Origin: Raillietiella orientalis
Taxonomy: Eukaryota
Assembly (NCBI GenBank): GCA_036172245.1
Contig: JAYWIR010000098.1
Coordinates: 62,001-126,000, forward strand
Length of the DNA: 64,000 nucleotides
Direction of reading: 5' to 3'
The position numbers and the translations under genes were made by a program. Of the stretch, positions 9,601-53,820 are shown piece by piece. The notes below the pieces were generated by a model. The model saw nothing but the letters and a program-made list of their open reading frames with translations, had not been told where the DNA came from and searched no databases. The stretch's first letter is position 1. Each line of letters begins with the position of its first letter.

Positions 9601-9703
9601 AGGCATCGCTGCTTGATCGACCACCGAACCACATGACGCTTGCACTGGGAGAGACTTCCTGGCACGAGGAGCACCAAGAAAACACGTCCACCCTTGAGCA
9701 CGC

Positions 9704-12425: not shown

Positions 12426-12435
12426 GCGTCCGGCG

Positions 12436-16990: not shown

Positions 16991-17004
16991 TCGCCGAAAC
17001 CTGG

Positions 17005-20000: not shown

Positions 20001-22676
20001 GTGGCGCTAGGGGAGGAGGAGGAAGAAATGCTCGATGAGTCTTTCACGACCGGTGAAATTCTCGGCGGTCTCAAAAGGCTCAAGAGGCGTAAGGCGCCGG
20101 GGGAGGACGGCTTGCCCGCGGAGTTCTTTTAGAGTTTCGCGGAAGAGCTGGACCACCTGGTATTCGAGTTTACAAGGCGAATCCGAGACGAAGGCGATGT
20201 TCCCGCCTCGTTTCGGTCAGCCAGGGTGAGCCTCCTCCCGAATTGAGGAGACCTCAGGAAACTTTGCAACTGGCGTCCGATCACGATTCTGAACACGGAC
20301 GCCAAGTTGATTGGCGGGCTGTGGGCGTCGCGATTAGGGCAGGTGTCCAATTCCATAATTAGCCCGGAGCAGACATACGGTGTTCCCGGGCGAAGTATGA
20401 ACGACAACCCTTTCTTCGCGAGCACATGGATACAGGCGAAGCGGAGTAAGAAAGAAGGGAAAAGGAAAATTTTGAACCCTTCTTTGGGGCCGCCAGTAGG
20501 ACAGGGTAGGGACGCTCGTGCGGTAAAGGGGGCCTTAGCGTTCGCAGTCGACCTCCATAAGGCATTCGACTGTGTTGACCAGGAACTCCTCTTGGAGCTT
20601 TTGGGTCGCATGGGCTTCCCACCCTCTTTGATGACCTACGTGCGCTCTTGCTGACGGAACGCGATAATCTCGATTACTTTTAGTGGACAAAAGGTGTATG
20701 GCGTGCTGGTTTGGCTAAGCATAAGGCAGAGCGACAGCCTCAGCCCCTGAATTTTAGCACCTACGCTGAGTTGGTGCTGAGAGCGTACAGGGTGACTTTG
20801 GCCCCCTTGCCGAGCTCGTGCCCCGGCACGCCAGCCGCAGTGGCGTATGCCGACGATCTTCTGCTCCTCTTACCTATGTACCCTGGCGAAGGAGGTCGGA
20901 GATTTCTTCGACCTGCTTAGCCGTGAGGCCGGATAACAGGTTAACAGGGCGAAGTCGTCAGTGTTGCCAGTTGGAGCGACGTGGGCAGGGTAGCAGGACT
21001 GGGTCCGTCTGGGGATCCCCACGGTGAGCTGCATCAAGTAGCTCGGGGTGCCGACGGGGGAATTCTCCCCTACCGAAGCGTGGTCCAGCTGCCTCCAAAA
21101 AGTCAAGACGGCGATGGGCCCGTTCCTGGAATGTAAGTTTCACTTGCTGGAACGGGCCGCGGTTGGGATCGCCTTCGCGGCCTCCATCCTCCGCACCGTG
21201 CTTCTTGTTTGCCCCGCCCCAGTGGAATCTAAAAAGCGGACGAAGGACCTCCTCCGCATAACTCCTTGGGGCAAGGGGAGGCCCCGAGTCCCTTTGAAGG
21301 ACTTGTGCGCTCCGCGTCGGGACGGCGGTCTCAGCATCCTGACGCTAGAGCGCGTGGAAATCCAGCTGCGATGGCGGACCCTCGCCATCGCAGCGAAGAT
21401 GTGGAGCACCGCTTGGTGCATTCCGGCCCGCCTCCCGGCCAGGCGTGTTTCTTGCTGCAAAGGACTCGCATCGATTCTTCTGTGCTCAGGCCGGAAGATT
21501 CGAAGATGCGGTCTACTGCTCGGCCGCATGGCAACCCTGGCAAATGAGAACGACTGGAGGGTTTGTGGCCCTGCCAACTCCTCCGCTTGGCTGGAAGAGA
21601 CTGCTGGCACCTGGGCCAAGCAGAACCAGAGTTGCGGAGACCCGATGAACTGTTTGCGAGTCGGCTTTTACTCTCGCCGAACTCTTCGTGAAATACTTGA
21701 ATTTCCACCGCGTTGCACGTGAGCGGAAGGCACACTTCTTGTTTCGGTGATGCCCTTCCTCCAAAGGGCGCTTCACGAAACCAGGAAGCCAAGGTGGCAA
21801 GTCTGCTGCCCTATCGCAGGCAGAGAGAAGATGATGGGCGGCTGGACCATGGGAGAGTTGATAGATGCAACGACCCCTAGTCTCCAGCTGCGTGGATTAA
21901 GAAGATGGGGCGAGCTGCTCGGCATTTGATTGAATGACCTGAAGTGGCCCCCGGTTCTACTTGGATCCAGGATTCTTCCCCTCAAGTGGCAAGAATCGGC
22001 GCTTCTGTGGATGCATTGGGGTCTACCCTGCAACGCGCGCCGCTCCCACTGGACGCGAGAAAGAGTAAATCCAGCGTGTGCCAGGTGTGGGGAGCGGGAG
22101 TCGCTCCCCCACCTCTTAGTTGAATGCCCTGCCGTGCGGATTCTTTGGGATCGTCTCAGAACGGCCCTTGGGATACCGGATGGTGGCAACCCCAGAGACG
22201 TGTACAGTCTTGTCTTCGTGCGGGGCGCCCTCAGTCCAGCCGCAGCCCTGGCAGCACTTTGCATCATTCGTGGTATAGGCGCGGACTGGACTGATGCCGA
22301 AGATGAAGACTGCATCGTGGGGGATGTCATCGAGTATGCTTCTCGCTTCCTGCAGAGAGCTATCCGATGGCCCCATGTAGGAAAACTGAAAAGGGAACTA
22401 GAAGGCATCCTGCAAAGTATGGGCCCTCCCAGCAGTTTTCTGTGATCCCTTCCCGGCCTTCCAAACTTTTTTTTTTTTTTTGTGGTTTGTTTTTCTCTTT
22501 TATTTTATTTTTGTTTTCTCCCCCATACCCCTTCATTGCCGAGGAGAGCCACACCGAGCTGCGTCCCGGTGTCCCGGCAGTTCCGGTATTGCGTGGCCGT
22601 CAGTGGGGCTTTGTACCACGTTCTCTATTGACTGTTGAAATGTTTTTAATAAACGTCCCGGCGTATCCGGTTGGCA
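17005..22676 (+). mobile_element. Full-length (~5.67 kb) family-A LINE with decayed ORFs, flanked by TSD copies 2 and 3
   Basis: 5' UTR tggacgtgtttt, ORF1 17106-18857, ORF2 ~18854-22445 (SWNVNG, GDFN, SDH, KAFD, YADD, CARC..H..C) and a 3' terminal hairpin. Confidence 0.93.
17106..18857 (+). pseudogene. LINE ORF1 with two CCHC zinc knuckles (internal stops)
   Basis: CGYCDAVGHIRKRC and CHLCGEKGHVRRVC. Confidence 0.88.
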
Positions 22677-24059
22677 TCGCCGAATCCTGGAGGGAGACGG
22701 TTTTTGGGAAACTGGTCGCAGAGCTCGCGGACTGAGCTCTTCAAGTCGTCTTAGTCCGCGAGCGACTGCAGATGGAAGACTTGCAGGAACGAGCGAAGAT
22801 GTTGCGCTGCTCCTGCGAGGCGCAACCAGTCCCCTGGCAAACGCCACGCTGTGGAGGGTGGACCTCTACCGCGCGGGTGTATTTCTATCACGAGCCGGGG
22901 ATGGTCGGAAAGTTCGGATGGCACTGCCCCTCGATTTCCCACCTGCAAACACAGGTGGTTGTCGAGGAACATGTGGTCGATCCTCGTCTCCGTCCCGGCG
23001 TCACCGGCCAACGAGTTGCGCGCGTGCTTGGCAGCGCACATCTCGTTTACCAGCTGTGTGCGAATGTCGGGCGCACCTGCCAGCAGGCGGATGTTAAAGT
23101 CCCCGGCAATGAAGTGCGCCTTTCGCATCTCTGCTTCGGCCAGCCAATCTCGCCGCTGGCTTTTGAAGAACGCAGTGCGTTCCTTGCGCCTGTGGCTCGT
23201 GTCGGGCGCTTACACGTTGGTCACGACGAGGTCGATCGCGTCGGACCACTTGGCAACAAGCTGCGCGATTTGATTTTCCTCGTCGAAGTGCACGTCGCGC
23301 AGCGCTTTAACGACGGCTGGCTTCAGCATGAAAGCCACACCGCGGGTGCGTTCGCTCCCGTTCTCGTATAGGAGCCGCCCGCCTGCGATCCGTTCGAATT
23401 CCTGGGCCTCCTCTGCGTGGAGCACGTGCGTCTCCTGCAGAAGCGCCAGGTCGAAGTCCCGCAGGCTAACGGCCACTTCTCTGCTCTTGCCCTCGTCGCG
23501 CAACCCGTTGACGTTCCAACAGATTACGCGCAGTCGCCGGCAGGAGGAGAGTCCACGCGTTGGTGTGTTTATGGTGTTTGCTTACCGTACTTCGCCTGCT
23601 GTTCAGCAGGCGGGAGTTGTGTATCCATTGCGACGGGCTGTTCCTCGCAAGGAAGCGGTCCGTCGGTGGTTGTGGTGGTGGTTGGAGGATCCTGCTTGGT
23701 TAGGGTTGCCTCCGGCGAGGAGTCGCGAGACCTCGCGGACATCGCCTCCCCGTCGTCGTGGTCCGACCGCATTTCCTCCTCCGCCGGTGGAGGTGCGGAG
23801 CGCCGCGGGTTGCTTACCTTGCGGCCCGCTTTGCTCTTCGGGAGAGCGACAGCCGGAGCGTTGCCGGCTTTGGCTTCGGACTCGGAAGTCTCCGGTCCTT
23901 TCGCCTCAGCCGGACGCCTCAAGGCCTTTTTCTCGGCCTTGGGAGGTTGCTGTAGCATGGCTGCCAACTCTTCCGCCGCCTTTTTGTAATCCCGGTCGTC
24001 GCTGCTCACGCTGGACCCGCGACTTTGTCGCGGCGTCGTCGTTCGCGCGGCGGCATGTT
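22677..24059 (-). mobile_element. 5' part of the host LINE (ORF1 C-terminus, endonuclease, linker) whose 3' part is at 12436-15423
   Basis: CWNVNG, LQETH, GDFN and SDH. The linker '..DQFPKNRLPPGFG' joins 'EGLRNDRAY' across the TSD. Confidence 0.87.
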
Positions 24060-27000
24060 GTTCACACCCGGATGTGCCGGGGCATTTATTTCTTAGAAAT
24101 AAAATAACAGAAAAAATCTCGCGTGGCGAACCCGAAGGTTCACCACTCCAAAACAGCTTGCTGGTCAACGGCTCCGTGCCGGAGAGGTCCTTCCGATGCG
24201 CGGCGATGGGAAATAAACAAAAACAAAAAGAAACAAAAAGTTCAAATGTAGGGGGGAACAAATGTTGTAGGGGTGGGAGGGCGGGGAAGGGATCACGGTG
24301 CGCGTGGAGAGGTCCTCTAGATCCTATTCAGGATCCGCACAACCTGAGTCCTTTCAGCGCCTAAGTGGCGCCACTTGCAGACACTTCGCGCGAAAACGCG
24401 AGTCCAGTGTAAGGCGTTGCCGGTTGGCTGACGCCTTCTTCTGGTGGCGTTCCAAGCCGCCACTATTCCTCTGATGCAGCAGAGGACTGCTAAACTAGCG
24501 GGCGGGGACAAGGCGTCACTACAGAAGAGGCGCCTGAAAACGTCCTTTGGGCCGCATCCGCGCAAGTCCAGGATCGCCGCGAGACGATCCCATAAAGGGC
24601 GGATGGCACTGCACTCGATGAGAAGGTGGGGGAAGGTCTGTTTTTCCCCGCACCGGTCACAATAAGGATCCACAGCCCCCCGGGTTGTGTGATGAAGGCG
24701 TGCTTTGAATGGAAGTCCCCAGAGGACCACAAGCAACGCCACATCCTGCCATTTCAGGGGGAGGGATGTACTGTTCCAGGACGCTGGGGGCTACTTCATC
24801 TCCTCCGGAGATAGTCCGAGTAGCTCGCCCCAGCGTCGAATTCCGTTGAGCGGGACACTCGGCGTCGCAGCGTCAGCTAGCTGCCGACATATCCACGCCT
24901 TTATCGATTGTGTCCTGCCGCCTATAGTGCAGGACACGGTCCATTTCACCTGCTTGCTACTGTCCCTGGCATTCACAAGGAAGGGCAGCACTGGGGCAAG
25001 GGGGGTTATCAAAGCCCACAGAAGCTTGTCGTGGGACTGCACGATCTCCTGCAGCGTCCAGCGGGCGTGCCTTTTCATACAAGTGTTCCTTGTGCCCGCC
25101 GGAACGTGGATCTTTTCCCAGGTGGAGACTGACTCGTGCAACCAGGCGGAGTAGTTCCCTGGGAGGCAGGAGATCCAGGCGTTCTCCCGAACCGCAACAA
25201 AGATGCTTCGCAGCATACAGCCACAGTATGGTCTTCTGCAGACGCGCGCAGACAGAAACGACAAAAGTCCGCTGATTCCGCAGGCTCGTTGGGCCAGGAG
25301 GCGTGCTGGAACGCACCAAGGCGTGTCCCACAATTCTGCCGCAAGGGCGAGAGTCCTGAATCGAAGTTGTATTTCGATGCGCTCCAGCGTAAGTAAGCCC
25401 AGTTCACCGTCCTTACGTGGAGCGCACAAGTCTTTGAGCCTCACACGGGACCTCCCTTTGCCCCAAAGGACTGTCCTCAGGAGGCATGCTGCTCGTTTCC
25501 GAATAAAATAAGGGGCGTGACAAACAAAAAGTAGGGAGCGAAGGAGCTGAGCCGCAAACGCGTTCCACACCGCGGCCCGTTCCTGCAAGTAGAACTTGCC
25601 TTCTAGGAACGGACCGATCGCCAACGCTGCCTTTTGGAGACGGTCGGACCAGGCTTCTGCTGCGCAGAGGTCCCCCAAAGGGTATGCCAAGGTACTTGAA
25701 GCACCTGCCCGTGGGGATCCCCAAGCGGATCCAGTCCGACCGTCCAGCCCACGCCGAACCGACGAAGACCATGGACGACTTCGCCATGTTCACCTCCAGG
25801 CCCGTCGCGCGGCGCAGCAACTCGAAGAAGTCCTCGAGTGCACTCGCCGGGGTGGACCCGGGAAGCAGCAGCAGAAGATCGTATGCATAGGCCGACACGG
25901 CAGGCGTGCCGGCACTCGAGCTCGGCAGGGTTGCCAGAGTTACCCTGTATGCCCTCAGCACCAACTCGAAGTAGATGCTGAAGAGCAAGGGGCTCAAGCT
26001 GTCACCCTGCCGGATGCCGCGGCGTACGGGCACGCCGTACACGTGCCTGCCGCTGAAACCGATATTGATTGACGCGTTGCGCCAGCAGGAGCGCAGGTAA
26101 GATTGAAGCACGGCAGGGAAACCCATGCGTTCCAGGAGCTCCAGAAGGAGATCCTGGTCGACGCAGTCGAATGCTTTGTGCAAATCGACCGCGACGTCAA
26201 AGGCTCCCGCCGAGTCCATCCCACCCTCTGCTTGATCTTCTTGGTCAGAGGGGGACGCGAGGCTCCCTTGACCGTCATGTGCAACGCGTTGTCGCAACTA
26301 CCACCATGAGCTGGCGAGGAGCAGGTTGGCCTCCATGGTTCGTCGGGGAACAGCATAGGTCTGCTTGGTACTCACCACGAAAGCGGCCACCCGCCCCAAA
26401 CGCTCAGCCCACAACTTGGCATACAACTTTGCGTCCGCATTCACTACTGTGATGGGACGCCAGTTGCCAATGTTGCGTAAGTCTCTTGACTTCGGCAGGA
26501 GACGTACTTTAGCTGAACGGAACGAGGCGGGAACTTCGCCGTGTTCGCGGATCAGCGCATTTAACCTGAGCACCAGGTGGGCCAGCTCTGGCGCGAAGCG
26601 ATGGTAAAACTCCGCGGGCAGGCCGTCCTCCCCTGGTGCCTTCCTTCTCTTGAGCCTGTTGATGGCGGAGATGATCTCCGCCATCGTGAACGGTTCCGCC
26701 AATCTGGAACGCTCCTCCTCCTTGAGCGCGGGAGCGCCATCCGGCAGCAGGCGCTGCGCGAAATGGCGCTCAGGTGATAGTGACGCGTACAAGGAGGAAT
26801 AAAACTCCCGCACGATGCGGCTTACCTGGGCTGGGCTGGAGCGTTCTTCGCCCTGATGATCCAGCAGGCAGGCCGAGCCTGACTGCCAGGCCTGCCTCTC
26901 CGCCTCAGCCTTGAATTCAGCCAGGCGACGGACGTCGGGACGCCGGGAATAACGGCGCGCCTGGAGGTACGCCCGCTCGTTCCTGACACCCTCACCGAAG

Positions 27001-27821
27001 CCCGGCGGAAGACGTTCCAGGGGAAACTGGTCGCAAAACTTACGGACTGAGCACTTCATTTCGTCCCAGTCCGCGAGCGTCTGAAGCTGGAATCCTCGCA
27101 AAAAACAGCGTAGATGTTCCGCCGCTCCTGCGAGGCGCAACCAATCCCCTGGCAGGCGCCATGTTTTCAGGGGAGGGCCCTTATTGCGCGGATGTAACTC
27201 GAGCACGAGCCGTGGATGGTCGGACAGCTCTGCCGGGAGCGTTCCTCGAGTTCCCACCCGCGTGCACAGGTGGTTGTCGAGGAACATGTGGTCGATGTTC
27301 CGATCTCTCCCGGCATCGCCGGCCAACAAGTCGCGCGCATGCATGGCTGCGCACAACTCGTTGACCAGCTGTGCTCGTCCGCTGGGCGCACCTGCCAGCA
27401 GGCGGAGATTGAAATCGCCCGCAATGAGGTGCGCCCTTCGCACGCCTGCTTCGGCCAGCCAGTATCGCCGCAAGGTTTCGAAGAACGCAGTGCGTTCCTC
27501 GGCCCTGTGGCTGCTCACCGGAGCGTACAGGTTCGTGACTACGAGGTCCATCGAGTCGGACCACTTGAACACAAGCTGCCCAACTCGACCATCCCCGTCG
27601 AACCGTGCACTGCGCAGTGAGTTGTCGACGGTTGGCTTTAGCAGAAAGGCCACTCCGCATGAGTTGTCCGTTCCGTTCCTCCACAGTAGCCGCCCTCCCG
27701 CGATTCTTTCGATTTCCTGGACATCTCCCGGTCGGAGAACGTGCGTCTCTTGCAGGAGCACCAGGTTGAAGTCTCGCAGTATGGCGGCTACATCTCGCCT
27801 CTTTCCGCCGTCGCGCAACCC
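24060..27821 (-). mobile_element. Family-A LINE from the endonuclease start to the 3' end (no ORF1)
   Basis: Endonuclease and RT motifs in 26298-27821, RQGDSLSPLLF, CDRCGEKQTFPHLLIEC, and a terminal hairpin at 24061-24090. Confidence 0.9.
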
Positions 27822-30800
27822 GACGCGGTCAAATGCTTTAAGGAAATCCACTGCTACTGCCAAGGCTCCCGGCATTTCTCCCGTCCGTCCGCACTTGCGG
27901 TCGCATTCGGCAGAAGGTCTCGCCTTTCTTCGGCTGTCCGCCGCAATGCGCTCTTGCAGATGAAACCAGGTGCGCGCGAAAAGAAGGTTCGCATCCATGG
28001 ATCTACCCGGTAAAGCGTAAGACTGCTCCGTGCTTACCACGGAATCCGCGACTTTCACTAGGCGCGTGACCCACAGCTTCGAAAACAACTTGACGTTTGT
28101 ATTCACTAACGTGATCGGACGCCAGTTGCTGAGTTGGCGCAGATCTCCTCCTCTCGGATGCAGACGCACTCTTGCTGAGCGGAAGGAAGAAGGGACATCG
28201 CCCGTCACTCTCATCAGCGTCGAGAGTATGAGCATCAGTGGGGCGAGTTCCGCCCCGAAGCTCTGATGAAACTCCGCGGGCAGCCCGTCCTCACCTGGCT
28301 TCTCCCGTTTCTTGAGTCCTGCGATGGCGGAAGAGACTTCCTCTAACGAGAAGGGCTCGTCAAGACGGGCGCGTTCCACCTCGCCGATGCAGTGTGCACC
28401 TCGCGGCAAAAGCATTTCCTAGAGGATTCTCTCCGTCGGGGATTTTGCGTAGAGCAAGATGAAGTGACGCTCCAGTGTTCGCCGTACTTGGGCAGGAGCC
28501 GTGCATTCCCGGCTTTGGACCTCGAGCAGAATAGCCGCTTGAGACTGCCAGACCTGGCGCTCAGCCCTCGCCTTGTACTCTGCGAGGTGCCGGACTTCCG
28601 CACGTCTAGAGAAGGTGCGCGCCTGCAGAAATTCTTTGCTATTGGCCACGCCTTCTCTAAAGCCGCGCGGTAAGAGGTGCAGGGCAACCGGTCGCAAAAT
28701 TCGGGAACCGATCTTTTAAGATGGTCCCAGTCTGCGAGCTGCCAGATGGTAAAGCCGCGAAGGAACTAGCGAAGATGTTCCTCCGCCTCAGGATGACTGA
28801 GCTAATCCGCTGGCATCCTTCGAACATTGTTCGAAGGTCCCTTGCCCGGCCAAAGTAGCTCGAACTTCAGCCTATCATGGTCCGATAACGTGGACGACAC
28901 CCTGCCTCTCCTTTCCACTAGTGAGAGTAGGTGTTCATCGAGGTAGAAGTGATCCACGCACCTTGCCATTCCAGACTTGCAAGCTTGCAAGTTACGCGCG
29001 TGCACCGACGTGCATGCCTCTTCCACCCGTGACTGTTCCGCCAGTGACCTCGTCTCGTTGGTAAGCAGGTTGACGTTGCAGTCCCCTGCGACGAGATGTG
29101 CCACTCTGGCTCCGGAGTTCCTGAGCCATTGGCTATCCAGCACATTGAAGAACTCGATACTTTCGGCGCCCCGATGAAAGCCGCTAAGCGCGTAGACGTT
29201 CGTCAGGACGAGGTCGATTGAATCTCACCACTTGAGTACAAGTTGGCCTAATCGCCCTTCCTGGTCGAATCGAACGCTGCGCACCGCTCCCGCCATCCTA
29301 CTATTAACTAGAAACCCGACTCCGCACGATTGTGCGGAACCTTCTCGCCAGTGAAATTTGCCTCCCGCGCGCTGTTCAATTTTGGCAGACTCCGCGTCCG
29401 AGATGTAATGCATCTCCTGAAGGATCGGCAAGTCGAAATGTCGCAGGGTGTCTGAAGCGCCGCGCTTCTTACCGTCCCTTCGCAGCCCGTTCACGTTCCA
29501 ACAGGCTACGCTGAACCGACGAAGAGAGGCGACTTCCTGCATTAAGGCTGGGTAGGTGAGCACAGGTCTCTCGCCTTGTCCGGCGAGTGGTTACGAGACA
29601 GAACGGAAGATCTTGGAGACTGGAAATCTCCATTCGAAGCCGCGTTGCTTGTTGCCGGTAGCTCAGAGGTGAGGCCCATTCCCTCCTCTTTGCTCCCCGC
29701 CTCTTCGGCAACCACGCGTTTGCGGGTCTTCGGGAGGCGATTAAGAGGTTTCGGGCGGTTTTCGCGCTGTGTGCTTATTCTGTCGTACTCTGGATCGGAA
29801 TTCGACAGTGGAACGCTTGTCAGGCGCTGCTTCTGTTTCCCGGAATTGGGGAAATCATTTGATGCCTGTTGCTTAGCGCTTTCTGCTGCTGCGGCTGGGA
29901 CTTTCGTCCTTTAAGCCGCAGCAGCAGCTTCTTGGTCCATTTGCGAGAGGACGACTGCACAGGAGGAAAAGAATGCAATCTCGTATGGGGATGGTTTCGC
30001 GGGTTTCTTTCGCCCACTCACCTTCACACAGAGCTGCGAGGACCTTGACGGTTTCTTTTTAATAACCTTTCTCACCTGTATCCAGCCGTCTTCCTCCGCG
30101 TCGCAGTTATGTTTGCCCTCCTGAGATGCCGCTTCGTCCGCGGATGTAAGAGGCGCTGCCTTGGCTGCCTTTTGAAGTGCTGCCTCCGCTCAGGCGTAAG
30201 CGACTCTCTTATCGATCGCAAGACGCGCTGCCTCTTGCAGATGGGAGGATTTGCGCTTTGCCTTTGCGACCGCTGGGGCCGCTGCTGTAGCGGATGTGCT
30301 CGCCGTAGCAGTTTCTTCCTTGGCCGCAGTAGGCGCTGCGTCCCTTCGCGAGTGTTGCGGGTTTGCCGGCTGTTTCTTCGCGGCACTGGGCTCCTGGGGC
30401 ACCTTGGCCGCAGTAGGTTTAGCCGGCACGGATTTCTTTGCCCGCGTGCGCGATTTTCCCGTATCGGGCGAGCGACCGCATTCCTCGCCACTTGCTGTGG
30501 CCTTGATAGGAGGCTTCGCGGTCGCGATGCCGACAGTGGGAGGCTTCTTGCTCTTCATCGCACTCTCTCCTGCTTTGAAAAATTCGCTGCGACGTCTCGG
30601 TGGAAGTTCGCATTCTTCGCGAGTTTCCTTTGGCTCAGTAGCCTGAGGCTTCGCCGCGACGCGTTTTTTTATGTTTTCCTCCCCTTTTTTGTGGAGGGGA
30701 GAAAGAGTTTTCTGAGCATGCGCGCTCGCGGTTTTCGCAACGCTCTCCGAAGTTTTGAGGTTTTTTCCCTCGATTCGCGGTGTTTATTTCGCGATGCGAT

Positions 30801-31659: not shown

Positions 31660-33960
31660 GTACGCGACTGGCGCTGATGCGGGAGACGGGAGATGCTCCC
31701 GCTAATTTCCGCTCAGCAAAGATGCGGCTCCTGCCGAAAGGCGGGGATTTGCGCCACCTCAGCAACTGTCGTCTGATCACCTTGGTGAATTCGGACATCA
31801 ATTTGTTCTGGAAGCTATGGGTTGCGCGGCTGCGGCGAATCGCGAAGTCCTTGGTAAGTCCGGAGCAGACTTTTGCTGTACCGGGGCGGACCATGGACGC
31901 GAATCTCTTCTTCGTGCGAACTTGGTTCGAGTTGCAGCAGCGCGTTGCTCAGGAGAGCCAAGCAGCCGAAATCGCAGCTTACAGAGGTAAGCGGCAGTGT
32001 TCAAGGCACGATGGAACGCCGAGGGCCTTAGTGGTAGCCGTCGAACTCTGCAAATCGTTCGACAGCGTAAACCAGAACCTCCTTCTGGAGATTCTGGGAC
32101 GCCTAGGTCTCCCTACGCATCTCATCGCCTACACGCGCTCCTGCTGGCGCCACGCGTTATGCTGTATCTCTTTCAGCGGCCGCCAAGTGTACGGCGTTGT
32201 CATACGGTTGGGTCTCACGCAGGGAGACAGCATAAGCCCCCGGCTCTTCAGCATCTTCTTTGAGTTGGTGCTGAGGGCGTACAGTCTGACGCTGGCCAAC
32301 CTAACGTGGCCTCCTATGCTGACGACCTTTTATTGTTGTTGCTTGTCTAAGGATTTCCACGGACAGGTGCTTTAAGTATCTCGGCGTTCCCTTGTGCGCC
32401 TTCTGTCCATCAGAAGCGTGGTCGGACAGCCTTCACGAGGCCGAGACTGCTCTGGGTTGGTTACAAGGCGTCAGGTTCCTCCTGTCGGAACGGGCCTTCG
32501 TATGGAACATTTTCGTTGCCCCTCTTCTTCGTGCCCTCTTTTTTGTTTGTCCCCCTCCCTACTAAACTAAGCGTAGGGCGCAACGCCATTTGGAAAACGC
32601 CTTGTGAGGACCGGCAAGGTCTAGGATACGCCTCAAGGACTTGGCGGCTCCTCGGCGGGATGCAGGATTGGCCATCCTGACGCTGGAGCGGATCGGACTG
32701 CTCGTGCATTTCCGCATGCTGGCACTTTGCGCCCAGCTATAGACTACTCCCTGGTGTGCTCCAGCGCGGCTGCTGCTACGGCGCTGCACGGCTGGCGACG
32801 GACTGCGTTCGTTGCATCTGCGCACGGAGTGCGCCCAGAGAGGATTCGGCTTCCCGCAGAAGCAGCTCTCCTCCCTGCTGGGAAAACATGCTTGGATCTC
32901 CTGCCGGCCGACGAACTTCGACGCCTGGAGGCAGTAAGCCTTATCGTCCTGGGCAGCGCATCAGGATGTGTCCCGTTTGGAACTCCGTTGCGTGAACCTT
33001 TAAACATACTGTCCAGTGGGGGAGTTGCTTGAAGACCAGGAACAGTGGACACGTGTAGCCGCTACGCCCCTCGCCGAAGCACTGTTTGCATTGATGGTGC
33101 GAGACGACAGTGATCTGCCGGCGAGGTAGGGGGGTCGCTTGCGAAATCGCAGGCGGAACCTGAATCCTGGGCGACTGGAGGACTAGCGGGGTGGCACACG
33201 CTGCCACGCCTCGACTCCGTGGCAAGGGACTTCTCCAGTAAAGCAAGCCCCTCGGGGTGCTCACTGATGAAATTGTGGAACCTTCTGCGTGTTTATACGC
33301 GACTGTCGTCCCCTTTCGGTGAAAACATGACGCATTTCTGCTGGTGCATTGGGGTTTGTACTGCAAGCAGCGCACGCACCTGGTTTTCTTAAGAGTTGCG
33401 TTCTTGAACTGTGTCAAATGCGGAGCGGTGGAATCGCTTCCGCATTTGCTGTTTGAATGCTAGCCCTCCAGTAGCTGTGGAGGCGGATGTCCTCAGAGCT
33501 ACATCATCCCTGACACACCATAATGGATTGAATGTGCCTCTCCTTTAGGCTTGGCGGTCTTTCTCTGGGAGCGGTCGTCGCAATCATCTGCTGTGTCCGC
33601 GCGATTGTCAAGGCCCGCCACGTATTGCAGATGCGAGCAGTCCCAACATCGGTCCCCTACACCGCAGCCTACAACCTGCAAATGGCTGCCGGGTGGCCAC
33701 ACTTTGGAGCAGAAGTAAGGACGGAGATCGGCGGCATTCACCGCCGGTTCTGAGAATAAAAACGGCTGGACTATAGAACCCTATTCCCACCCTCCCACCC
33801 AATTTATTTATTTCTTGTCCCCTCCCTCTCGTTCCGAACTCTCAGTGTTACCGGCCTGCGTGCCGGGGAGTCTAATCCCAATCTTTTGTTTCCCTTGCCT
33901 AGAAACACAGTTCCCAGATGTTTTTATCAACAAACTTCCCGGCGCAACCGGGTAATAAAC
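31660..33960 (+). mobile_element. Heavily decayed 5'-truncated family-A LINE (RT to 3' end)
   Basis: LLPKGGDLR, TQGDSISP, and terminal cccggcgcaaccgggtaataaa. Confidence 0.82.
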
Positions 33961-35092
33961 GATAACCGTGCATTCCTCAATCTTCTCGCTTGCCTGCTGT
34001 TTTTTCTGGCGGTACGCGAGGTTTTTCTTCAATCTTCTCTCCTTTTGGCTCTTTTTGTCCGTTCTTACCTGCCACCCAGGCTTCTGGCCGGATCCTTCGA
34101 CTTTTTTGGCGTTGTTTGCCGGGGTCTCGGGTGCGTTCTGGGCCTTGGGAGCGGGTGGCACAGCGTTCGCGGCAGCTTTCGCCGCCAGCCTTTTCTGCAG
34201 CAGCCCGCCGCGTTTTTTCAGGTTTCTTTTGGAAGCCAGCTGCACTGCTTCTTTTGGGCACACCTCCCTCTTGTGACTCATTGTGCCGCATACTTGGCAC
34301 TTCACGTTGCGGCACCTTATTTTCAGGTGGCCCGACGTATTGCAGAAGCCGCAGTATTTCGGCTTCCCCACATGCCATAGGTCCACGGTTTCGCTATCGA
34401 CCACCATTTTGTAAGGATGAGTGCAGCCCTTTCGTACGGTCACGTGTGCAGCCGTGAGGCCGTTCTGAAGCCTTGTGTAGTCCTCATAAGGACTAACTTC
34501 CGTCCACTGCGCGTGGACCGTACCGTATTGCTCCGACGCGCCGCGAACCTGTTCCTACCGCATCCGCGCTGTCACGCCTAATAGGTGGACCACCATGCTG
34601 CGGTCCGCCGTAATAGGGAGGAGCCTGCGCGTCCCCATCACCACGGGGGTTTTAAGCAGTCGTTGGGCCAGCTCTGCTTGTTTGCAAATGAGCTCAACGT
34701 ACTGACCCGCACTGCGGATGGTCATAGCGCTGAGCTCCTCCTCTTTCACATCGAGAGCGCGCATCCCTTTCGAGAAGGCGCGCGCGCTCTCTAAAGAATA
34801 TAGATTGCCTACCTTGTAGAAAAGCGAAGGGTTATACCCCTCTTCTACATAGGCCAACAATTAAGCCGCAACTGCAAACGATGGCGCTGACACGACGGCG
34901 CTCCATGCCCGCGCTGCAGCGGGAACCGATTCTGTGGGGGCGCATGCCCCCACCTCCATCGTCTCTGAAGGCGACGTTGCTGCCGCCCCCTAACTCTTCA
35001 TCGCCACTGGGGGCGGCGTTGCCGCTGCCCCTTGACCATTCCTGGTGGTCGCGTCAGGCATCGCTGCTTGATCGACTACGGAACCATACGAC
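33961..35092 (-). mobile_element. ORF1 fragment closely related to ~8510-9640
   Basis: YVEEGYNPSLFYKVGNLYSLESARAFSK and CGFCNTSGHLKIRC. Confidence 0.88.
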
Positions 35093-36806
35093 GTGGTGCC
35101 AGTTGGTGCGGCGTGGGCAGTGCAGCAGGACTGGGTCCGTTTGATGATCCCCACGGCGAGGTACCTTAGGTACCTTGGTGTGCTGTTTGGGGACTATTCC
35201 CCTTTGGATGCGTGGTCAGGCTGCCTCCAAAAAGTTGAGACGGCGATCAGCCCGTTCCAGGAAGACAAGTTTCTCCTTCCGGAATGGGCCGCGGTGTGGA
35301 ACGCGTTCGCAGCTCCCATCCTCCGCCTCCTGCTTTTTGTTTGTCACGTCTCCCAGGTGCTGAAGAAACGGACGAAGGACCTCCTAAGAATTGCCCTTTG
35401 GGGAAGAGGGAGGCCTCGATTCCTGTTGAAAAACTTGAGTGCTCCGCGTGGAGATGGCGATTTCGGCCTCTTAAAAGTGCTGCGAGTAGAGACTCAGCTG
35501 GGATGGCGCACCCTCGCTATCGCAGCGAAGTTATGGAGCACCCCAAGGTGCGTTCCGGCCCGACTGCTTTCCAGCCGTTTATCCGGGACGGAGAGTCTCG
35601 CGTCTCATCTTCTGTGCCGTGGCTCGAAGTTCAAGAGTTGCAGACTTCTCCTGGGACGCTGGCAACTCTGGCTAAGGAGAACAACTGGATAGTATGCAGC
35701 CCCGTCAACTTTTCCGCATGGCTTAAGGAGACGGCTGGCACTTGGGCTTAGATAAACCAGAGGAGTGAAGGTCCCATGAATTGTCTGCGTGTCGGCCCAT
35801 ACGTCCGCCGCACCCTGCGGGAAATACTTTTATTTTCCGCAAGTTGCTACTGAGCGGATACGATCCCCGTTGCTACGGCGATGCCCTACCTCCGAAGGGC
35901 GCTTCCCGGCAGCCAAAAGCCGAGGTGTCAAGTCTCCTGCCGAATCGCAGACAGGGAGATGTTAAGCGGCCGGACCTTAGGAGAACTGGCGGACGCCACG
36001 ACACCGAGCGTGCAGCCGAGAGGACTTTTGCGATGAGGCGAGCTGCTCGCCATCCCCATGGATGTGCTAAAGTGGCCCCCAGTGTTGTTGGTATCGAGGA
36101 TCCTGCCCCTTAAGTGGCAAGAATCGGCGCTGCTACTGTTGCATTGGGGTTTACGCTGCAACGCACGCCGCTTTTACTGAACAAGGGGAGCGCTGGATCC
36201 TCAGTGTGCCAGGTGCGGAGAGCGGGAATCGCTCTCCCACCTACTTGTTGACTGTGTTGCCCTTTGACCCCACTGGGAACGGTTTGGGACGACCCTTGGC
36301 CTCCCGGTGTGGAGCCAACCCAAAGACGTTCTCCGCCATCTCTTCGTGAGGGACGCCCTTTAGCCATTTGCATCCGTGGCAGCACTCTGCTGTATCCGAT
36401 GCATCGTGGCTGCCTGGAGAGATACCTGCGGCAAAGGAGTGGATTCAACCGCGATGGCTGTCATCCTGTATGCTGTTTGCTTCCTGCGGAGAGCTATTGG
36501 ATGGCCCCAGCTGGGAAACTTCAAGAAGGACCTCGAGGGTATCCTGATAAGGATGGACCCTCCTCCCAGTGGACTGTGATCCCTTCTTTTCCCCAAAAAA
36601 ACTCTATTTTTTTTGTTTTTGTTCACTGTTTCATTTTTCTTCTTGTTTTATCCCTCATCCCCCTCCACTGCCGAGGAGAGTCACACCGGGCTGCGTCCAG
36701 GTGTTTCGGCAGGACCGGTATTGCGTGGCCGTTAGTGTACCTTTTTCCACGTTCTGTACTGACAGATGAAGCGTTTTAATAAACGTCCCGGCGTACTTGG
36801 GTGACA
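35093..36806 (+). mobile_element. 3' part of a family-A LINE, same subfamily as 15424 and 17005
   Basis: Contains CARCGERESLSHLLVDC. The 3' UTR and end (aataaacgtcccggcgtacttgggtgaca) match 16962-16990. Confidence 0.88.
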
Positions 36807-37331
36807 TCACCAAATCCTTTCGGGAGACGATCCATGGGGAACTGCTGGCAGAACTATCGGACCGAGACTTTCAAATCGTCCCAGTTGTCGAGCGTCTGCA
36901 GGCTGAAACCTCGCAAGAGGCGCATCTTCGTTTTCGGAGGATTCCCCTTCCTCGGAGGAGACGATCCTCCTCTGGTTACGGATTTTCCATGCGGTCTTCC
37001 ATGGGGTTGCAGACACGGATGGTGCGTGTCCGGCCTCCGGGTCCGAGTCCGAGGTTCCGGTCCCCCTCCTTTGGGCCGGACGTCGAGCGGCCTTCTTCTC
37101 GCCCTTTGCGGGTGATTGCGGAACGGCGGCGGTGAGCTCCACGGCGGCTTTCGCAGAGTCCGCGCCAACGCGGCTTTCCCCCTCGCTGCAGCCCTCGGCT
37201 GCTGTTCGCACAGCGACGGGGCTGTCGGCGTTGTTGCACACGGCAACCGCCTGTTCGCACGTGACTTCGGCGTCTGTAAGGCGCTCCAGTGAGATCGTGC
37301 GTTTTTTCAGTCCATGCTTTTTCGCGGGTTT
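36807..37331 (-). mobile_element. Host LINE remnant: ORF1 C-terminus joined to the ORF2 linker (endonuclease deleted)
   Basis: The linker 'LRGFSLQTLDNWDDLKVSVR' (36854-36915) follows ORF1-like low-complexity sequence. ORF1 continues from 39991. Confidence 0.75.
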
Positions 37332-39990
37332 TTCACCCGGGTGAGCCAGGGCTTTTATTATTAAAATTTTCCAAAATACAAAATAAAATTTCATAATAAA
37401 GTCATGAGTTGTTGTTGTTTTTTTTTTTTTTTTTTTTTTTTGTGGTGGTTGTTCTTGTTTTTCAGTCGGGACATATGACCCGACTGTCTTGGGGCACTTG
37501 TCCTTACCGACCCTAAGGCCGATAAGGTCCTCCACACTGGCGAAGGGGCAGGGAAAACCAAAAATAAACAAAAAAAGAAAATGCCTGGGGGGAACAATGT
37601 ACTTTAGGGGGGGGGAGGGAAGGGAAGGAATCACGGTACGCCGTGAGGAGGCCTATGCATTCCGTCACGGATGCGGACGAGCGCCTGTAAGTGTTTTTTA
37701 AGTCCGCGCCAACGGCAGGCCTTCTCCAAGGAGATGGTTGCTCAGTGGATGGCATTCCGACCGGCATGTCCTCTCCTTGACGCGGTCCACTTGTCCAGTA
37801 TTCCGCGTATGCAACAGAGCACTGCTACACACCCGGAAGCTGGCAAGTCGTCCCGCATCAGGAGTCGAAAAATGTTCTTCGGGTCGCCCCGCAGAATGTT
37901 CAAGATCGACGAGAGTCGGTCCCACATATCGCGAAGGGCAACGCACTCAATGATCAAGTGAGGTAAGGTTGCTCTTTCCTCACAGTCTGGGCAATTAGCA
38001 TCCACACTTCCCCATGTCCAGTGAGACAAGCGCGCTCTGCTTAACAGTCCCCAATGGAGCAGAAGCAACGCCGTCTCCTGCCACTGCAGGGGAAGGGTGC
38101 CGTTATTCCACGACGCCGGGGGCGACTTCACCTCCTCCGGAGGTACTTCGAGCAGCGCGCCTTAGCGTGTAAGTCCATTCGGCCAGACACTCGGGGTACT
38201 AGCGTCCGCTAGTTCCCGGGACGTTCACGCCTTCAATAATTTTTTTCTGCCTCCGATGAGGCAGGACACTTCCCACGATGCCTCCTGCTGGCTGTCCCGA
38301 ACTTCCCTGAGGAAGGCAGCACTGGGGCAAGGGGGGTAAAGGAGGCCCACAGAAGCTTCCGTGGGTTGCTGACGATCTCCTGCAGTGGCTGACCAGCGTA
38401 CCTGCCTCTACGGAGGCAGGAGAAGTCCTCATCGCTAAAGCCGTTGATTTTAGCCCATGCGGAAACGGATTCCTGGAGCCAGGTAGTCCATTCCGCTGGG
38501 ATGCAGGAGATCCACGGATTGTCTGTCAACAGGGCAACTAATTCCCGCAGCTGAAAACCACAGTGGTTAAGGCTGCGGTCGTTGGCTACTAGGATTGCGG
38601 TCAATCCATGGCAGCCGGTTGCCCTGTGAGCCAGGAGTCGTGAAGGTGCACATCAGGGTGCGGTCCAGTACTTTGCCACAAGGGCAAGTTTACGGAATCG
38701 GAGCAGTCGCTCCATGCGCTCCAGCGTCAGGAGACCAAGTCCACCGTCCCTGCGTGGAGCGCACAAGTCTTTAAGACGGACGCGGGGCCTCCGATTGCCC
38801 CAGAGGGCTTTTCTAATGATGCCCCTTGTTCTTTGTCGAATTTGGGGAGGTATGGGGCATACAAAAAGTAGGGGGCGGAGGAGGGGGGCCGCAAAAGCGT
38901 TCCACACCGCGGCCCGTTCCTGCAAGTAAAACTTGCCGTCCCGGAACGGGCCGATCGTCAACCCCACCTTTTGGAGACGGCCGGACCAGGCTTCTGCAGC
39001 GCAGAAGTCCCCCAACGGAATGCCCAGGTACTTGAAGTACCCGCCCGTGAGGATCCCCAAGCGGATCCAGTCCGACCGTCCTGCCCGCCACGAGTTTGAA
39101 GAAATGATTGACGACTTCGCACTGTTTACCTCGAAGCCCGTCCCACGGTTCAGCAACTCAAAGAAATCATCGAGCGCCGATGCCGGGGTGGATCCGGGAA
39201 GCAGAAGCAGAAGGTCGTCGGCATAGGCCGACACGGCAGGCGTGCCGGGACATGAGCTCGGCAGGGTTGCCAAAGTCTCCCTGTATGCTCTCAGCACCAA
39301 CTCAAAGTAGATGCTGAAGAGCAGGGGGCTCAGGCTGTCACCCTGCCGGATGCCGCGACGAACCGGCACGCCGTACACGTGCCAGCCGCTGAAATTGATG
39401 TTAATTAGCGCGAAGCGCCAGCAAGAGCGCAGGTACGCCAGGAAGACGGCCGGTAATCCCAAGCGTTCCAGGAGCTCCAGGAGAAGCCCCTGGTCGACGC
39501 AATCGGAAGCTTTACGGAAATCGACTGCGACCGCAAGGGCTCCGGGCGCCGCATCCTCCCCCCGTCTTCCTACCCCCTTTTCGGTAAAGAGTTCAGGACT
39601 CTCCCGACCTAGCTGAGCCTCGCGCTGTTGCAACTGTTAAAAGGTGCTGGCGAGGAACAGGTTGGCCTCTATGGTTCGTCCGGGAACAGCGTAAGTCTAT
39701 TCCGGACTAACGACGGATTCCGCTTCCCGTCCCAGACGCTCAGCCCAGAGTTTGGCGAGCAACTTTGCGTCCACATTTACCCCAGTGATAGGACGCCAGT
39801 TGCCAACGTTGCGCAAGTCTCCTCCTTTAGGGAGGAGACGTACTCTAGCTGACCTGAACGAGTTGGGGACATCCCCGCGTTCACGGATCAGCAAACACAA
39901 TTTGAGCACCAGGGGAGCCAACTCTGCCGCGAAGTGTTGGTAGAATTCAGCTGGCAGGCCGTCTTTTCCTGGTGCTTTGTTTTTTTTTAG
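37332..39990 (-). mobile_element. 5'-truncated family-A LINE with a 14-bp TSD (tttttcgcgggttt at 37318-37331 and 39991-40004)
   Basis: RT ORF 38653-39633 (RQGDSLSPLLF, YADD), CPDCEERATLPHLIIEC, a terminal hairpin and an exact flanking repeat. Confidence 0.92.
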
Positions 39991-41100
39991 TTTTTCGCGG
40001 GTTTCGCGGATTTTGCAGGAACTTTATTCTTCTTTTTCAAGTTCCCTTTTTTGTAGCTGACCTTTTGCCAGTCCGGCTCTTCTCCTTCCGCCCCGGTTGC
40101 CTCCGTTTCCGCAGACGGGGTGTTAGGCACGGCCTTTTCGGCTGGCGTCGGGTCAACCTGTTTTTCAGACGTTGGTCAGGGCTTGCCATGCTTCTTGTTA
40201 TTTGCGTTCGTGCCTCTTGTGACAGCAGCCAGCGCGCGCGGAGACTTTTTCGGGCACATTTCTTCCGTGTGCCCGGTTGCCTTGCACTTGCGGCAGGTGA
40301 TGTTGGGGCAACGTTTCTTCACGTGTTCCGTAGCATCACAGAACGCGCAGTATTTGGGTTCACCCAAATACCAGATGTCGACAGTATCTCCGTTGACAAC
40401 CATTTTGTGGGTAATCCCCACGTCCTTGGCAACCGTGATGCGCGCAGCAGCGAGCCCGCTTAGAAGTCCGTTATAAGTACGGTGTCTGTTGGGCTTCGCC
40501 CACAGTGCGTGCACGGTGCCGAATTTGCACAATTCAGCCCTGACGGCACTCGGGGGCATCCGTAGGGTGATTCCGCGGAGGTGAACTATTGAGTTGTCTA
40601 CCGGGACAGGGAAGATCTGGCTGCCTTCGATCCTAACGGAAGTTCGCAGCAGTCTTTGCGCCAACCCTGCTTCTTTGCAGGTCAGCTCGAAATGCTGCCT
40701 TCCGCTGCGGATGGAGAGACCCAACAGATCCTCCTTGTTGACGTTCAAATGGTGCAGCTCCTTCTCAAAGGAGCGCGCCACACGATCATCGAATACCCGG
40801 CCTACCTTAAACAGCAGGCTGGGATTGCAATTATAGGCCTTGTAGGCCTGGGTCTCGGCCATGGCCGCTGCAGATGGCGCTGCGACCACGGCGCTGTAGT
40901 CCCTTGCTGGCGCGGGGGGTGAAGCTTTAGGGGCTAGTGCCCTTACCTCCATGGGGACGGGTGACGTTCGACCGTCGCCCCCCCTACATTCCTCAGTGGC
41001 GGGATCAGGCATTTTTGCCATCCTTCAACCACTGAATCACCGCACTACACCAATAAAAACGAAGCGAGTCAGGAGCGCGCGCAGAACACGTCCGACCGAC
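39991..41100 (-). mobile_element. Host LINE 5' end and ORF1 (ORF 40176-41021)
   Basis: CAFCDATEHVKKRC and CRKCKATGHTEEMC knuckles. Confidence 0.88.
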
Positions 41101-47349: not shown

Positions 47350-48850
47350 GCATAAACTTGCTCCTGTACCAGCCTTTCGAAAAACTTTAAGACTCTTTCA
47401 AGACCCTAAACACGTAAGATCCAGAGAAACTATACCTTTGCATACATTATCAATATTTACGCGTGCAAAATGGCAAACAGTTATGAAAGGAAATCAAGAA
47501 AAAAACAAGATATATCCAGGAGAGCAGAAGGAACAACAAGAGCAACGAATCTCTCATAACAAATAAATCAGATAGAAAACAAAGAAGGTTCCAAACCACG
47601 AGATGATACACTAGTCAGAAATTCTCTAAGGGAAAGTTAAGAAACCGAAAATGCAACGAGAGTAACGGATCAAGGGAAAAAATGCAAGTACCACGAATTC
47701 ATTCAAATGCCAATCAAAGCAGCAGATACATCACTAAGCAACTCTAATAGTCACTAGTCGAACTAATTGTACCACAACGCGCTGTGTAATATTGAATCAA
47801 CGATCCAATTGCAAATTGCCAAAAACAGCTTGCATACGAAAGAAGACCTGAAGTTCCACGATGAACATCCTTTCAAGAACCAAATACTGCTTACGAAGTT
47901 GAATAGAATTGATGGCATCCTTTCACTCGAAATGCTAGCCGATCAAGGAGCAGAATGGAGCATCACATTGAGAGGAGAACGCTGCTCCGGTGGGTTTTAT
48001 ACAGAGTCACTTGCGGTTTCATACAACACATGATATTCCCTTGCCCCTCCTTGCCCTACGCCGTTCTCCCAACAAGTGCTGGAATCTCTCTTTCATGATG
48101 CGCAAAACAACGGATGATTTACTTTTCCACATCCAGGACGTTCTCGGCAGAACAAAGGCGGAAGAAATCTTAGCATTAATGAGAAAAATAGCTCACATCA
48201 GTGTCAACGAAATGTTTTCGAAGAAAGAAGGAAACTAGACGAGTTTACAGATTAGCATGCGTCTTAAAGGAACGGTGAGATGCCCGGACCACTGATAGCT
48301 TTCAAGTATGGTAGGAAAGAGCATTGAACGAGGTAGGCGACGTGGGAAAAAGGATTGCGATGAGAGACAATATGGAGCAGACGAGAAACGAGAGCACCGT
48401 CACCAAAGGTTGAGATACGGTTCCGATGAACACGTGGAGATCCTGCAGAAGCAAGTAGAATGAGAGCAGATTTGAGAATAACATGTGCAAGCGCATCAAG
48501 ATAGGAGCATCCCACCTGTACCATCACAGCAAACGCACTAATGCGAGCAGCCGGCAACTGCAAACAGAAAAGCACGTACTATAAGCGCGTAGAAAAAAGA
48601 ACCGCGGGCACAAAGTGCGAAGGCATAACAGCTGCAAGGAAACTTTAATTCTGCCAACCCAAACCGCTCTTTGGAGGCGGCAGCTATTTGTGCATTCGGC
48701 GCTCACCGAAGTGCCAAGGGGTTCTTTGCGTGGCTCACTCACTTCCAGAAGGGAAGGAAACTGCGGCTACACAAGAGAAAACTTGGATCCATTGCCGACA
48801 GCAATTCCAATTCCAAATTCGGGGAGGTATATGGACATAACTGTCGGATC
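47350..48850 (+). repeat. Left arm of the outer inverted repeat (partner ~52350-53820)
   Basis: ORFs 48264-48575 (-) and 52577-52936 (+), and ORFs 47990-48238 (+) and 52962-53246 (-), give near-identical translations. Similarity fades outward. Confidence 0.9.
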
Positions 48851-52349: not shown

Positions 52350-53820
52350 TCACCTCTAAGGGAGTTTTTTTTGCATACCTTTCGGAAGTTGGAAATGGAA
52401 ATGTTCTCAGCGACGCATCGACGTTTTCTAATGACAAGCAATAGTTTTATTTCCTTCTGGAAGTGACTGTGCCACCAAAGGAACCCCCTAGCTTTTCCGT
52501 AAGCGCCGAATGTACAAATAGCCACCACATCCATAAAGTGAATTGGGATCGCGAAAGCTAAGGTCGCTTCCAAATTTTGTGCCTTCCCACATTGTGCCCG
52601 TGGATATTTTTTGCGCCACAATACGCGCTTTGCTGTTTGCAGTTGCCGGCTGCTCGCATTGGTGCGTTTGCTGTGATGGTACAGGTGGGATGCTCCTATC
52701 TTGATGCGCTTGCACATGTTATTCTCAAATCTGCTCTCATTCTACTTGCTTCTGCAGGATCTCCACGTGTTCATCGGACCCGTATCTCAACCTTTGGTGA
52801 CGGTGCTCTCGTTTCTCGTCTGCTCCATATTGTCTCTCATCTCAATCCTTTTTCCCACGTCGCCTACCTCGTTCAATGCTCTTTCCTACCATACTTGAAA
52901 GCTATCAGTGGTCCGGGCATCTCACCGCTCCTTTAATACGCATGCTAATCTGTAAACTCGTCTAGTTTCCTTCTTTCTCCGAAAACATTTCGTTGACACT
53001 GATGTGGGTTATTTTCCTCATTAATGCTAAGATTTCTTCCGCCTTCGTTCTGCCGAGAACGTCCTGGATGTGGAAAAGTAAATCATCCGTTATTTTGCGC
53101 ATCATGAAAGAGAGATTCCAGCACTTGTTGGGAGAAGGGCGTAGGAAGAGGAGGGAGCGAGGGAATATCATGTGTTGTAGGAAACCGCAAGTGATTCTGT
53201 ATAAAACCCATCGGAGCGGCGTTCTGCTCTCAATGTTCTGCTTCATTCTGAGCCTTTTTTGTCTGGTATTTCGAGAGAAAGGATGCTGTCACTTCTATTC
53301 AACATCGTAAGGAGTATTTGGATATTGAATTGATGTTGTTCGTAGGATTTCAGTTGTTCTTTTGCATGCAAGACTTAGTAGGAAATTTTCTGTTGTTAAC
53401 AGCGCGTTGTGGTCCCATTTTTGTAAAAACTCAGTTTAAGAGTTTCTTAGTGATGTAGCTGTTGCTGTTATTTGCTCGTTGATGACTTCGTGATACTTTG
53501 ATTTCTTCCCATGATTTGTTGCTTCCGTTGAAGTTCTGGTTTCTTAATTCCCTTTTTGGGATTTTCGAACAATTATGTCATCTTGTGGTTTTCGACTTCT
53601 TTTTCTCCATGTGCTTTATTTGTCCTGAGAGATTCGTTCCTCTTCTTGTTTTTGCTTTCCTAAATTCAACTTTTTTCTTTTGTTCCTTTTCATCAGTGTT
53701 TGCTATTTTGCACTCGTTGATCTAGATGCTGAAGGCGAAGGAAGTGTTGTTTGTGGAACTAACGTATTTTGTGTCTCGAAGGAGTCGTGTAATCTTTGAG
53801 CAGGTTGGTACAGGGGTAAA
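52350..53820 (-). repeat. Right arm of the outer inverted repeat
   Basis: Reverse complement of ~47350-48850, with the best-matching core at ~52625-53250. Confidence 0.9.

Follow-up and report, generated by a model that had tools for sequence, protein, structure and literature searches.

The window analysed here, 64,000 nt of Raillietiella orientalis contig JAYWIR010000098.1 (positions 62,001 to 126,000; all coordinates below are those of the window), is eukaryotic repeat DNA with a nest built from one family of retrotransposons that lack long terminal repeats (non-LTR). The best reading of the junction at 36807 within this nest is that a target-specific lineage of long interspersed nuclear elements (LINEs) of the apurinic/apyrimidinic endonuclease (APE) type retrotransposed for a third time and left its 3′ junction there. 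Copies E1, E2 and E3 are referred to as the E clade, and copies H12, H3 and V as the H clade. Insertion at one nucleotide of a repeated target recurred at three junctions in two host copies, with a 14-bp target site duplication (TSD) for two of the three insertions; same-nucleotide junctions, a triple 14-bp TSD, an empty paralogous site and a selection signature separating E3 from E1 and E2 were all observed. That these elements home site-specifically and that E3 inserted independently is in our judgement probable.

Copies were mapped by self-comparison and with an iterated nhmmer profile of 5462 positions, made from the window's own copies. The third junction is made up of the following features.

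33959-35092, minus strand: X2, 5′ part of a minus-strand copy
35093-36806, plus strand: E3, 5′-truncated, profile positions 3750-5462
36778-36806, plus strand: 3′ terminus of E3, with AATAAA, the short inverted repeat CCCGG-N-(C/T)TGGG, the end ...GACA and no A-tail
36807-36820, minus strand: homologue of the 14-bp target, TCACCAAATCCTTT on the plus strand; host sense strand ...GGATTTGGTGA^
36807-36925, minus strand: linker part of H3 (H3a), profile positions ~2416-2527, last codons RLPKGFG

A sequence-only reading of the window had placed a copy at 35093-36806 directly against an antisense PxGFG linker. The boundary was confirmed by blastn, in which E3 aligned with a full-length copy over 35093-36795 (72.1% identity over 1721 columns), and by nhmmer, in which it covered profile positions 3750-5462 of 5462. 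The terminus at 36806 reads ...GGGTGACA (also written ...aataaacgtcccggcgtacttgggtgaca and ...AATAAACGTCCCGGCGTACTTGGGTGACA) and is directly adjoined by tcaccaaatcctttcgggagacg. Translation confirmed the linker: the reverse complement of 36809-36925 gives MRLLRGFSLQTLDNWDDLKVSVR*FCQQFPMDRLPKGFG, the antisense stretch between endonuclease (EN) and reverse transcriptase (RT), ending in RLPKGFG, for which the counterparts are ...FPLERLPPGFG in V and ...FPKNRLPPGFG in H12. Linker homology of the right flank stops near 36925, the end coordinate given in that reading, which leaves a flank of 119 nt. E3 itself is decayed, with 6 stops in 443 codons in the comparison with E1. The left TSD, as had also been noted, is not visible: the bases left of 35093 belong to the 5′ end of X2, which adjoins the truncated 5′ end of E3 and hides the left junction.

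The 3′ ends of E1, E2 and E3 (16990, 22676 and 36806) abut the same host nucleotide in the family alignment, confirming the claim that the junction lies in the same register as 16991 and 22677. On the host sense strand the three nicks read GGTTTCGGCGA^ (16991, also written GGATTCGGCGA^), GGATTCGGCGA^ (22677) and GGATTTGGTGA^ (36807). The 18-mer AATAAACGTCCCGGCGTA occurs exactly at 16962, 22648 and 36778, and with up to three mismatches at six places versus 0.02 expected. A metagenome scan with this E 3′-end 18-mer returned four loci (L001-L004), all lacking the rest of the element, and these were dismissed as chance matches. The H3 target differs from that of H12 by two CpG-to-TpG changes on the sense strand (TTCGGCGA to TTTGGTGA), and GGATTTGGTGA is probably a CpG-decayed form of GGATTCGGCGA, the decay apparently having followed insertion. 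The CpG-to-TpG changes at 36807-36820 relative to 22677-22690 also give a hint of cytosine methylation in the nest.

Site specificity was shown independently by a double insertion into the host copy H12, for which an uninterrupted paralogue, V, lies alongside.

12434-15423, minus strand: 3′ part of H12, profile positions 2515-5461 (nhmmer)
15410-15423, left of E1: TSD copy 1, TCGCCGAAACCTGG
15424-16990, plus strand: E1, 5′-truncated, profile positions 3893-5462, 447 codons still open
16991-17004, between E1 and E2: TSD copy 2, TCGCCGAAACCTGG
17005-22676, plus strand: E2, full length, 5672 bp, 92.5-92.9% identity with E1
22677-22690, right of E2: TSD copy 3, TCGCCGAATCCTGG, one base different
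22677-24057, minus strand: 5′ part of H12, profile positions 1195-2527, with APE and linker (nhmmer, blastn)
24058-27822, minus strand: V, paralogue with empty site
26992-27005, minus strand: empty target TCACCGAAGCCCGG in V, context ...gacaccc TCACCGAAGCCCGG cggaagacg

The halves of H12 meet at the target, and the host is contiguous across E1 and E2. The order in this single host copy is host-TSD-E1-TSD-E2-TSD-host, and two insertions must therefore have taken place in which both strands were nicked at the same positions. The window holds two exact copies of the 14-mer TCGCCGAAACCTGG versus 0.0005 expected, with the third copy one base off, and uninterrupted family members have it once. E2 appears to have inserted first and E1 to have entered the left TSD of E2 later, because TSD copies 1 and 2 are identical and copy 3 differs, and because E1 is open over 447 codons while E2 carries stops and indels. 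Entry of E1 into the left TSD of E2 would in turn place the recognition determinants in the 14-mer and the host sequence 3′ of the nick.

These repeats bear on the idea that the junctions formed when the E 3′ end recombined with the host linker, or underwent gene conversion with it, through sequence similarity. Such an origin could be suspected from the nhmmer host alignments, which ran on into the E 3′ end by 32-46 nt. When the E ends were aligned locally with the host sequence that they displace, however, the result was no better than with shuffled sequences (527 to 1614 of 2000 shuffles scored as well, hence no significant similarity), and target-primed reverse transcription (TPRT) with staggered cuts predicts direct repeats such as the three 14-bp ones seen here, all perfect or nearly so, which makes recombination extremely improbable.

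Whether E3|H3 is an event of its own was judged from the pattern of differences between the copies. Between E1 and E3, differences by codon position numbered 107/445, 80/446 and 172/446 (chi-square p = 8.5e-12), and the ratio of non-synonymous to synonymous change (dN/dS) was 0.29 over 437 codons. In the control pair E1-E2, the corresponding counts were 33, 35 and 33 of 447 (p = 0.96) and dN/dS was 0.78; the E1-E2 divergence is neutral decay. Given the third-position excess, the E1-E3 divergence must therefore have accumulated mostly in still-coding lineages, and E3 and E1/E2 go back to separate active sources, which excludes that they are neutral copies of a single dead junction.

The alternative addressed by this comparison, which the sequence-only reading had named as the case that would refute its claim, is that a single E|H junction was duplicated segmentally long ago and its copies then diverged neutrally. 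It gains some appeal from a minus-strand copy, V or W, lying to the right of the host at both loci, and from the raw divergence of insert and flank. The comparison of insert with host divergence, proposed in the sequence-only reading as a check, gave values that roughly match (26-28% for the insert, 34% for the host) and are indecisive alone; it is the pattern of differences that favours a separate event. Against a duplication stand the codon-position excess and dN/dS of E1-E3 beside the flat neutral pair, and also the host side, where identity over the 119 nt was 66.4% for H12-H3a and 75.6% for H12-V, and H12 was nearer to the empty-site V than to H3 in 98.3% of 5000 bootstrap resamples. Moreover, despite the seemingly shared arrangement, there is no homology between the junctions V|H12 and W|H3: in family coordinates ~100 nt separate them, and within H3 an 11-bp TSD of its own flanks W. 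We therefore regard a duplication as very improbable. The claim of a separate event thus gained support from the E1-E3 codon pattern, the H12-V affinity, the non-homologous neighbouring junctions and the triple TSD in H12. The accompanying claim that all three inserts are of the same subfamily holds in a loose sense: E3, an E-clade copy, has only 72-74% identity to E1 and E2 (71.5-74.0% when given to one decimal), and the tree pairs it with A, a copy at another site.

Eleven 3′ ends, at 10 distinct sites, are readable in the window. The linker site holds three of the 11 (E1, E2 and E3), and the other eight are of other sub-lineages and at other places. In a tree of the 3′ 1.57 kb, E1, E2, E3 and A form one clade and H12, W and V a second, with B and Y apart, so that three of the four insertions of the first clade in the window are at the linker site. 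Among the seven copies with a linker (H12, H3, V, Q, B, E2 and A), two are occupied, by three insertions, and both are H-clade copies. The five empty linkers (V, Q, B, E2 and A) depart from GGATTCGGCGA, the E clade's own included; the version in E2 is GGTGATTCCGCGA. The 3′ end at 41812 was tried as a fourth junction and rejected, as it falls at profile position ~2697, 170 nt away. There was no significant antisense bias among the 3′ junctions (8/11, p = 0.23).

A shared nick preference offers another way to bring three ends together. At four of the 10 distinct sites (E1/E2, A, B and W; 3′ junctions 4148, 11802, 16991/22677 and 37328), the priming strand carries a TTCG whose end lies 1-4 nt short of the nick, versus a background of 3.4% (p = 2.5e-4), and this looks like a general nick preference of the family. 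Under such a loose TTCG-type preference, the three hits would have coincided on one such site through chance or local accessibility. The nest, however, holds 209 + 204 = 413 TTCG sites, and the same nick with the same 14-bp stagger was used twice and the homologous nucleotide a third time, a coincidence of the order of 1/400 x 1/40. That one nucleotide was hit three times is more than the TTCG preference can explain by itself, and we consider this account highly unlikely.

A more serious competitor concerns the structure of the third host copy, H3, whose remaining parts are listed here.

36926-37317, minus strand: upstream part of H3 (H3b), profile positions ~1086-1491, homologous to 23800-23985 of H12
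37329-39990, minus strand: W, 5′-truncated, in sense orientation within H3, with an 11-bp TSD
40002-41100, minus strand: 5′ part of H3, profile positions 2 to ~1060, with full-length 5′ end

W is flanked by the 11-bp TSD TTTTTCGCGGG at 37318-37328 and 39991-40001, and 36926-37317 and 40002-41100 are therefore parts of one host copy. H3 is thus a single copy on the minus strand whose full-length 5′ end lies near 41100; W breaks it in sense orientation and E3 in antisense orientation. Internal deletions were seen in nest copies, in H3 at 36926, where the endonuclease domain is removed, and in Y at 32346.

The competitor is 3′ transduction: the source of E3 would have sat at the linker site of an H-clade copy, read-through would have carried 119 nt (36807-36925) along, and E3 with this flank would have inserted at profile position ~1491 of H3, away from the target that its source had hit. 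In its favour, H3 jumps from profile position ~1491 to ~2416 exactly where the flank homology stops, and the left junction of E3, which would decide the matter, is lost. On the other side, E1, the only insertion of the clade with a testable 3′ flank, carries no transduced sequence, neither AATAAA nor an A-run lies near 36925, internal deletions occur elsewhere in the nest (Y lacks profile positions 3664-3796), and H3a and H3b are both closest to H-clade copies, as expected of one copy. Transduction is in our view unlikely, and it would still imply a third occupation of the site by the source of E3.

Several points weigh against a third independent homing event. The left junction and TSD of E3 are lost. 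H3 lacks profile positions ~1491-2416 (~925 positions, the APE region), with the gap starting 119 nt from E3. The FastTree grouping of H12 with V has a local support of only 0.73, and for H12-H3a the differences by codon position (13/10/17 of 39 each) are not numerous enough for a selection signal. A pairs with E3 in the tree, yet the 3′ end of A lies at profile position 618 of C. The whole case is built on three events in one 64-kb window.

The 3′ termini of the elements have a common layout. AATAAA, or a one-base variant, is conserved ~23 nt before all the 3′ ends (for example 16962-16990, 22648-22676, 36778-36806 and, on the minus strand, 12434-12466 and 24058-24094), and an inverted repeat CCCGG-N5-CCGGG is conserved 5-6 nt before them. 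No long A-run, and hence no poly(A) tail, was found at any of the 11 3′ ends: E-clade elements end in ...GGCA and the others have no more than 5 A. The cleavage site itself seems to be where reverse transcription begins. A 3′ hairpin was predicted in 8/8 folded ends, of which six had z-scores between -0.9 and +0.3 and the remaining H12 and V had -1.56 and -2.26; covariation supporting the hairpin was absent from the eight. With ordinary z-scores and no covariation, a special 3′ structure was rejected in favour of a conserved inverted repeat only.

In the mechanism that we propose for homing, the E clade would be directed to one site in H-clade copies, the P-x-G-F-G codons between endonuclease and reverse transcriptase. 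The E-clade endonuclease would nick the sense strand of the host copy after 5′-GGATTCGGCGA-3′, and the freed 3′-OH would prime reverse transcription at the extreme end of the E RNA (...GGUGGCA), which lies 5 nt past the conserved short inverted repeat and ~23 nt past AAUAAA, with no A-tail being copied. A cut of the other strand 14 bp away would then give the 14-bp TSD. Judging from the sequence, specificity would be carried by a putative endonuclease activity of the E clade. It is possible, though we put this forward only tentatively, that the E clade is a 'hyperparasite', whose endonuclease evolved to recognise the PxGFG motif (GGATTCGGCGA) of a competing LINE lineage, whose own motif is altered, and which lives only in rival copies and, together with the TTCG nick preference, builds GC-rich Zepp-like islands in a genome of ~40% GC.

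Family copies were found by nhmmer almost without a break over ~2.4-41.9 kb of the window, with a second patch at 58.9-64 kb. GC content was 0.52-0.61 (~57%) in the nest versus 0.38-0.46 (~40%) at 42-58 kb. The open reading frames (ORFs) of the family matched Pfam PF03372 for APE (1.7e-10 and 1.5e-08) and PF00078 for RT (best 3.4e-14 among family copies), and copy V shows the domain order APE, linker, RT. A zf-CCHC knuckle in ORF1 was borderline (20.8 bits, equal to the cut-off of 20.8), a zf-RVT-like motif at the C-terminus of ORF2 reached 20 bits, under its cut-off of 27.5, and protein-level searches gave weak L1-like matches. By the APE and RT of its ORF2, the family is an APE-type non-LTR retrotransposon (LINE) of L1/Tx1-like architecture. 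E1, E3, V, W and Y are 5′-truncated, and the TSDs in the family are of 14, 11 and 11 bp.

A search of 1.84 billion public protein representatives gave 20585 hits at E <= 1e-3. Among the best 150 of these 20585 hits, only P0001 (68%) and P0030 (60%, a 132-aa fragment) exceeded 40% identity, the rest having at most 36%, and the linker is covered by neither of the two; on these best 150 hits, the LINE family is nearly absent from public protein sets. Two further protein searches gave 2 and 11 hits, and an Atlas search generic LINE clusters only. An Rfam search of the 64-kb window found no match.

The remaining copies of the nest are as follows.

2423-4148 and 9704-11801, plus strand: A (nhmmer map)
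4149-9703, minus strand: B, full length (nhmmer map, TSDs)
11802-12433, minus strand: C (nhmmer map)
27823-29603, minus strand: Q
31672-33958, plus strand: Y, without profile positions 3664-3796

B, inserted antisense in the RT 'KAFD' codons of A, has a 736-codon open frame at 5812-8022 and an 11-bp TSD, AAGGCGTTCGA, at 4138-4148 and 9704-9714, and may be among the youngest elements of the nest. V, H12 and C stand head to tail on the minus strand, with the 3′ end of H12 (12434) adjoining the full-length 5′ end of C and the 3′ end of V (24058) adjoining the truncated 5′ end of H12; a common TSD linking the three as a tandem array was looked for and none was found. At 31660/31672, 35092/35093, 41100/41118 and 9703/9704, a minus-strand 5′ end adjoins a truncated plus-strand 5′ end. 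These four 5′/5′ abutments fit alternating insertions nested deeply as in a 'Russian doll', with left halves that would lie beyond the left edge of the window, such nesting being proven, by TSD, only for B in A. Elsewhere, the plus strand at 272-1837 carries a 521-codon open frame of a different LINE family (RVT_1, 9.5e-31; public relatives at most 29% identical), and the AT-rich part of the window holds an inverted repeat pair (47354-48830 and 52375-53823, 1.45 kb each, 81% identical).

The Tx1, R1 and Zepp elements described below are compared by their features. The known targets of target-specific APE LINEs are rDNA, telomeric repeats, small RNA genes, microsatellites and one DNA transposon, and R1 also makes a 14-bp TSD. 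The present case works in a similar way and differs in its target, which is a coding motif conserved in a sister LINE lineage and read antisense, in the 14-bp TSD, and in the lack of an A-tail despite a conserved AATAAA. A limited literature search, which reached its sources in part, found no LINE that has a fixed 14-bp TSD and whose target is a defined nucleotide site within coding sequence of a different LINE lineage.

In the portions of the literature available to us, the Tx1 and R1 clades account for most of the non-LTR elements that combine target specificity with an APE endonuclease. Tx1L of Xenopus laevis, which inserts into the DNA transposon Tx1D, resembles the E clade as an APE LINE with ORF1 and ORF2 that inserts sequence-specifically via its endonuclease into a transposable element (PMC1919474, PMC6719617). 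Unlike Tx1L, the E clade inserts antisense into the linker coding region of a sister lineage of LINEs, with a TSD of 14 bp. The endonucleases of R1Bm, TRAS1 and Tx1L recognise ~10 bp, which in the R1 clade lie around the nick, according to the same excerpts (PMC1919474, PMC6719617). The R1 clade (R1Bm in 28S rDNA, TRAS1/SART1 in telomeric repeats) shares with the E clade the APE type, precise recurrent junctions and a repeated target (PMC1919474, as far as available); the E-clade target is, however, a transposon and not a host multicopy gene, and the family has the zf-RVT-like motif and weak L1-like matches. If the present finding holds genome-wide, it would add to the natural APE endonucleases a new one, whose recognition site spans 11-14 bp.

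R2, which inserts target-specifically in 28S rDNA (PMC4640811, consulted in part), likewise uses site-specific TPRT into a conserved multicopy target, with tandem or repeated use of one site. It differs in having a restriction-like endonuclease and a single ORF, whereas the family described here has an APE domain and two ORFs. L1 typically carries a 3′ poly(A) tail, which is absent from the 11 3′ ends of the window. In green algae, the L1 elements Zepp and ZeppL make up GC-rich clusters of nested copies, ascribed in the sections consulted to insertion into existing copies (PMC8226300, PMC3446292, PMC9940879), and are like the present nest in that clusters of 5′-truncated LINEs form GC peaks (PMC8226300, PMC3446292). 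The portions of the Zepp literature consulted give neither a defined nucleotide target nor a fixed TSD, and in the present family AATAAA precedes the end and there is no A-tail. Were targeting of this kind true genome-wide, one retrotransposon lineage would be using the conserved motif of its rival as a safe harbour, and a sequence-level mechanism would be at hand for the growth of self-nesting LINE islands of the Zepp type.

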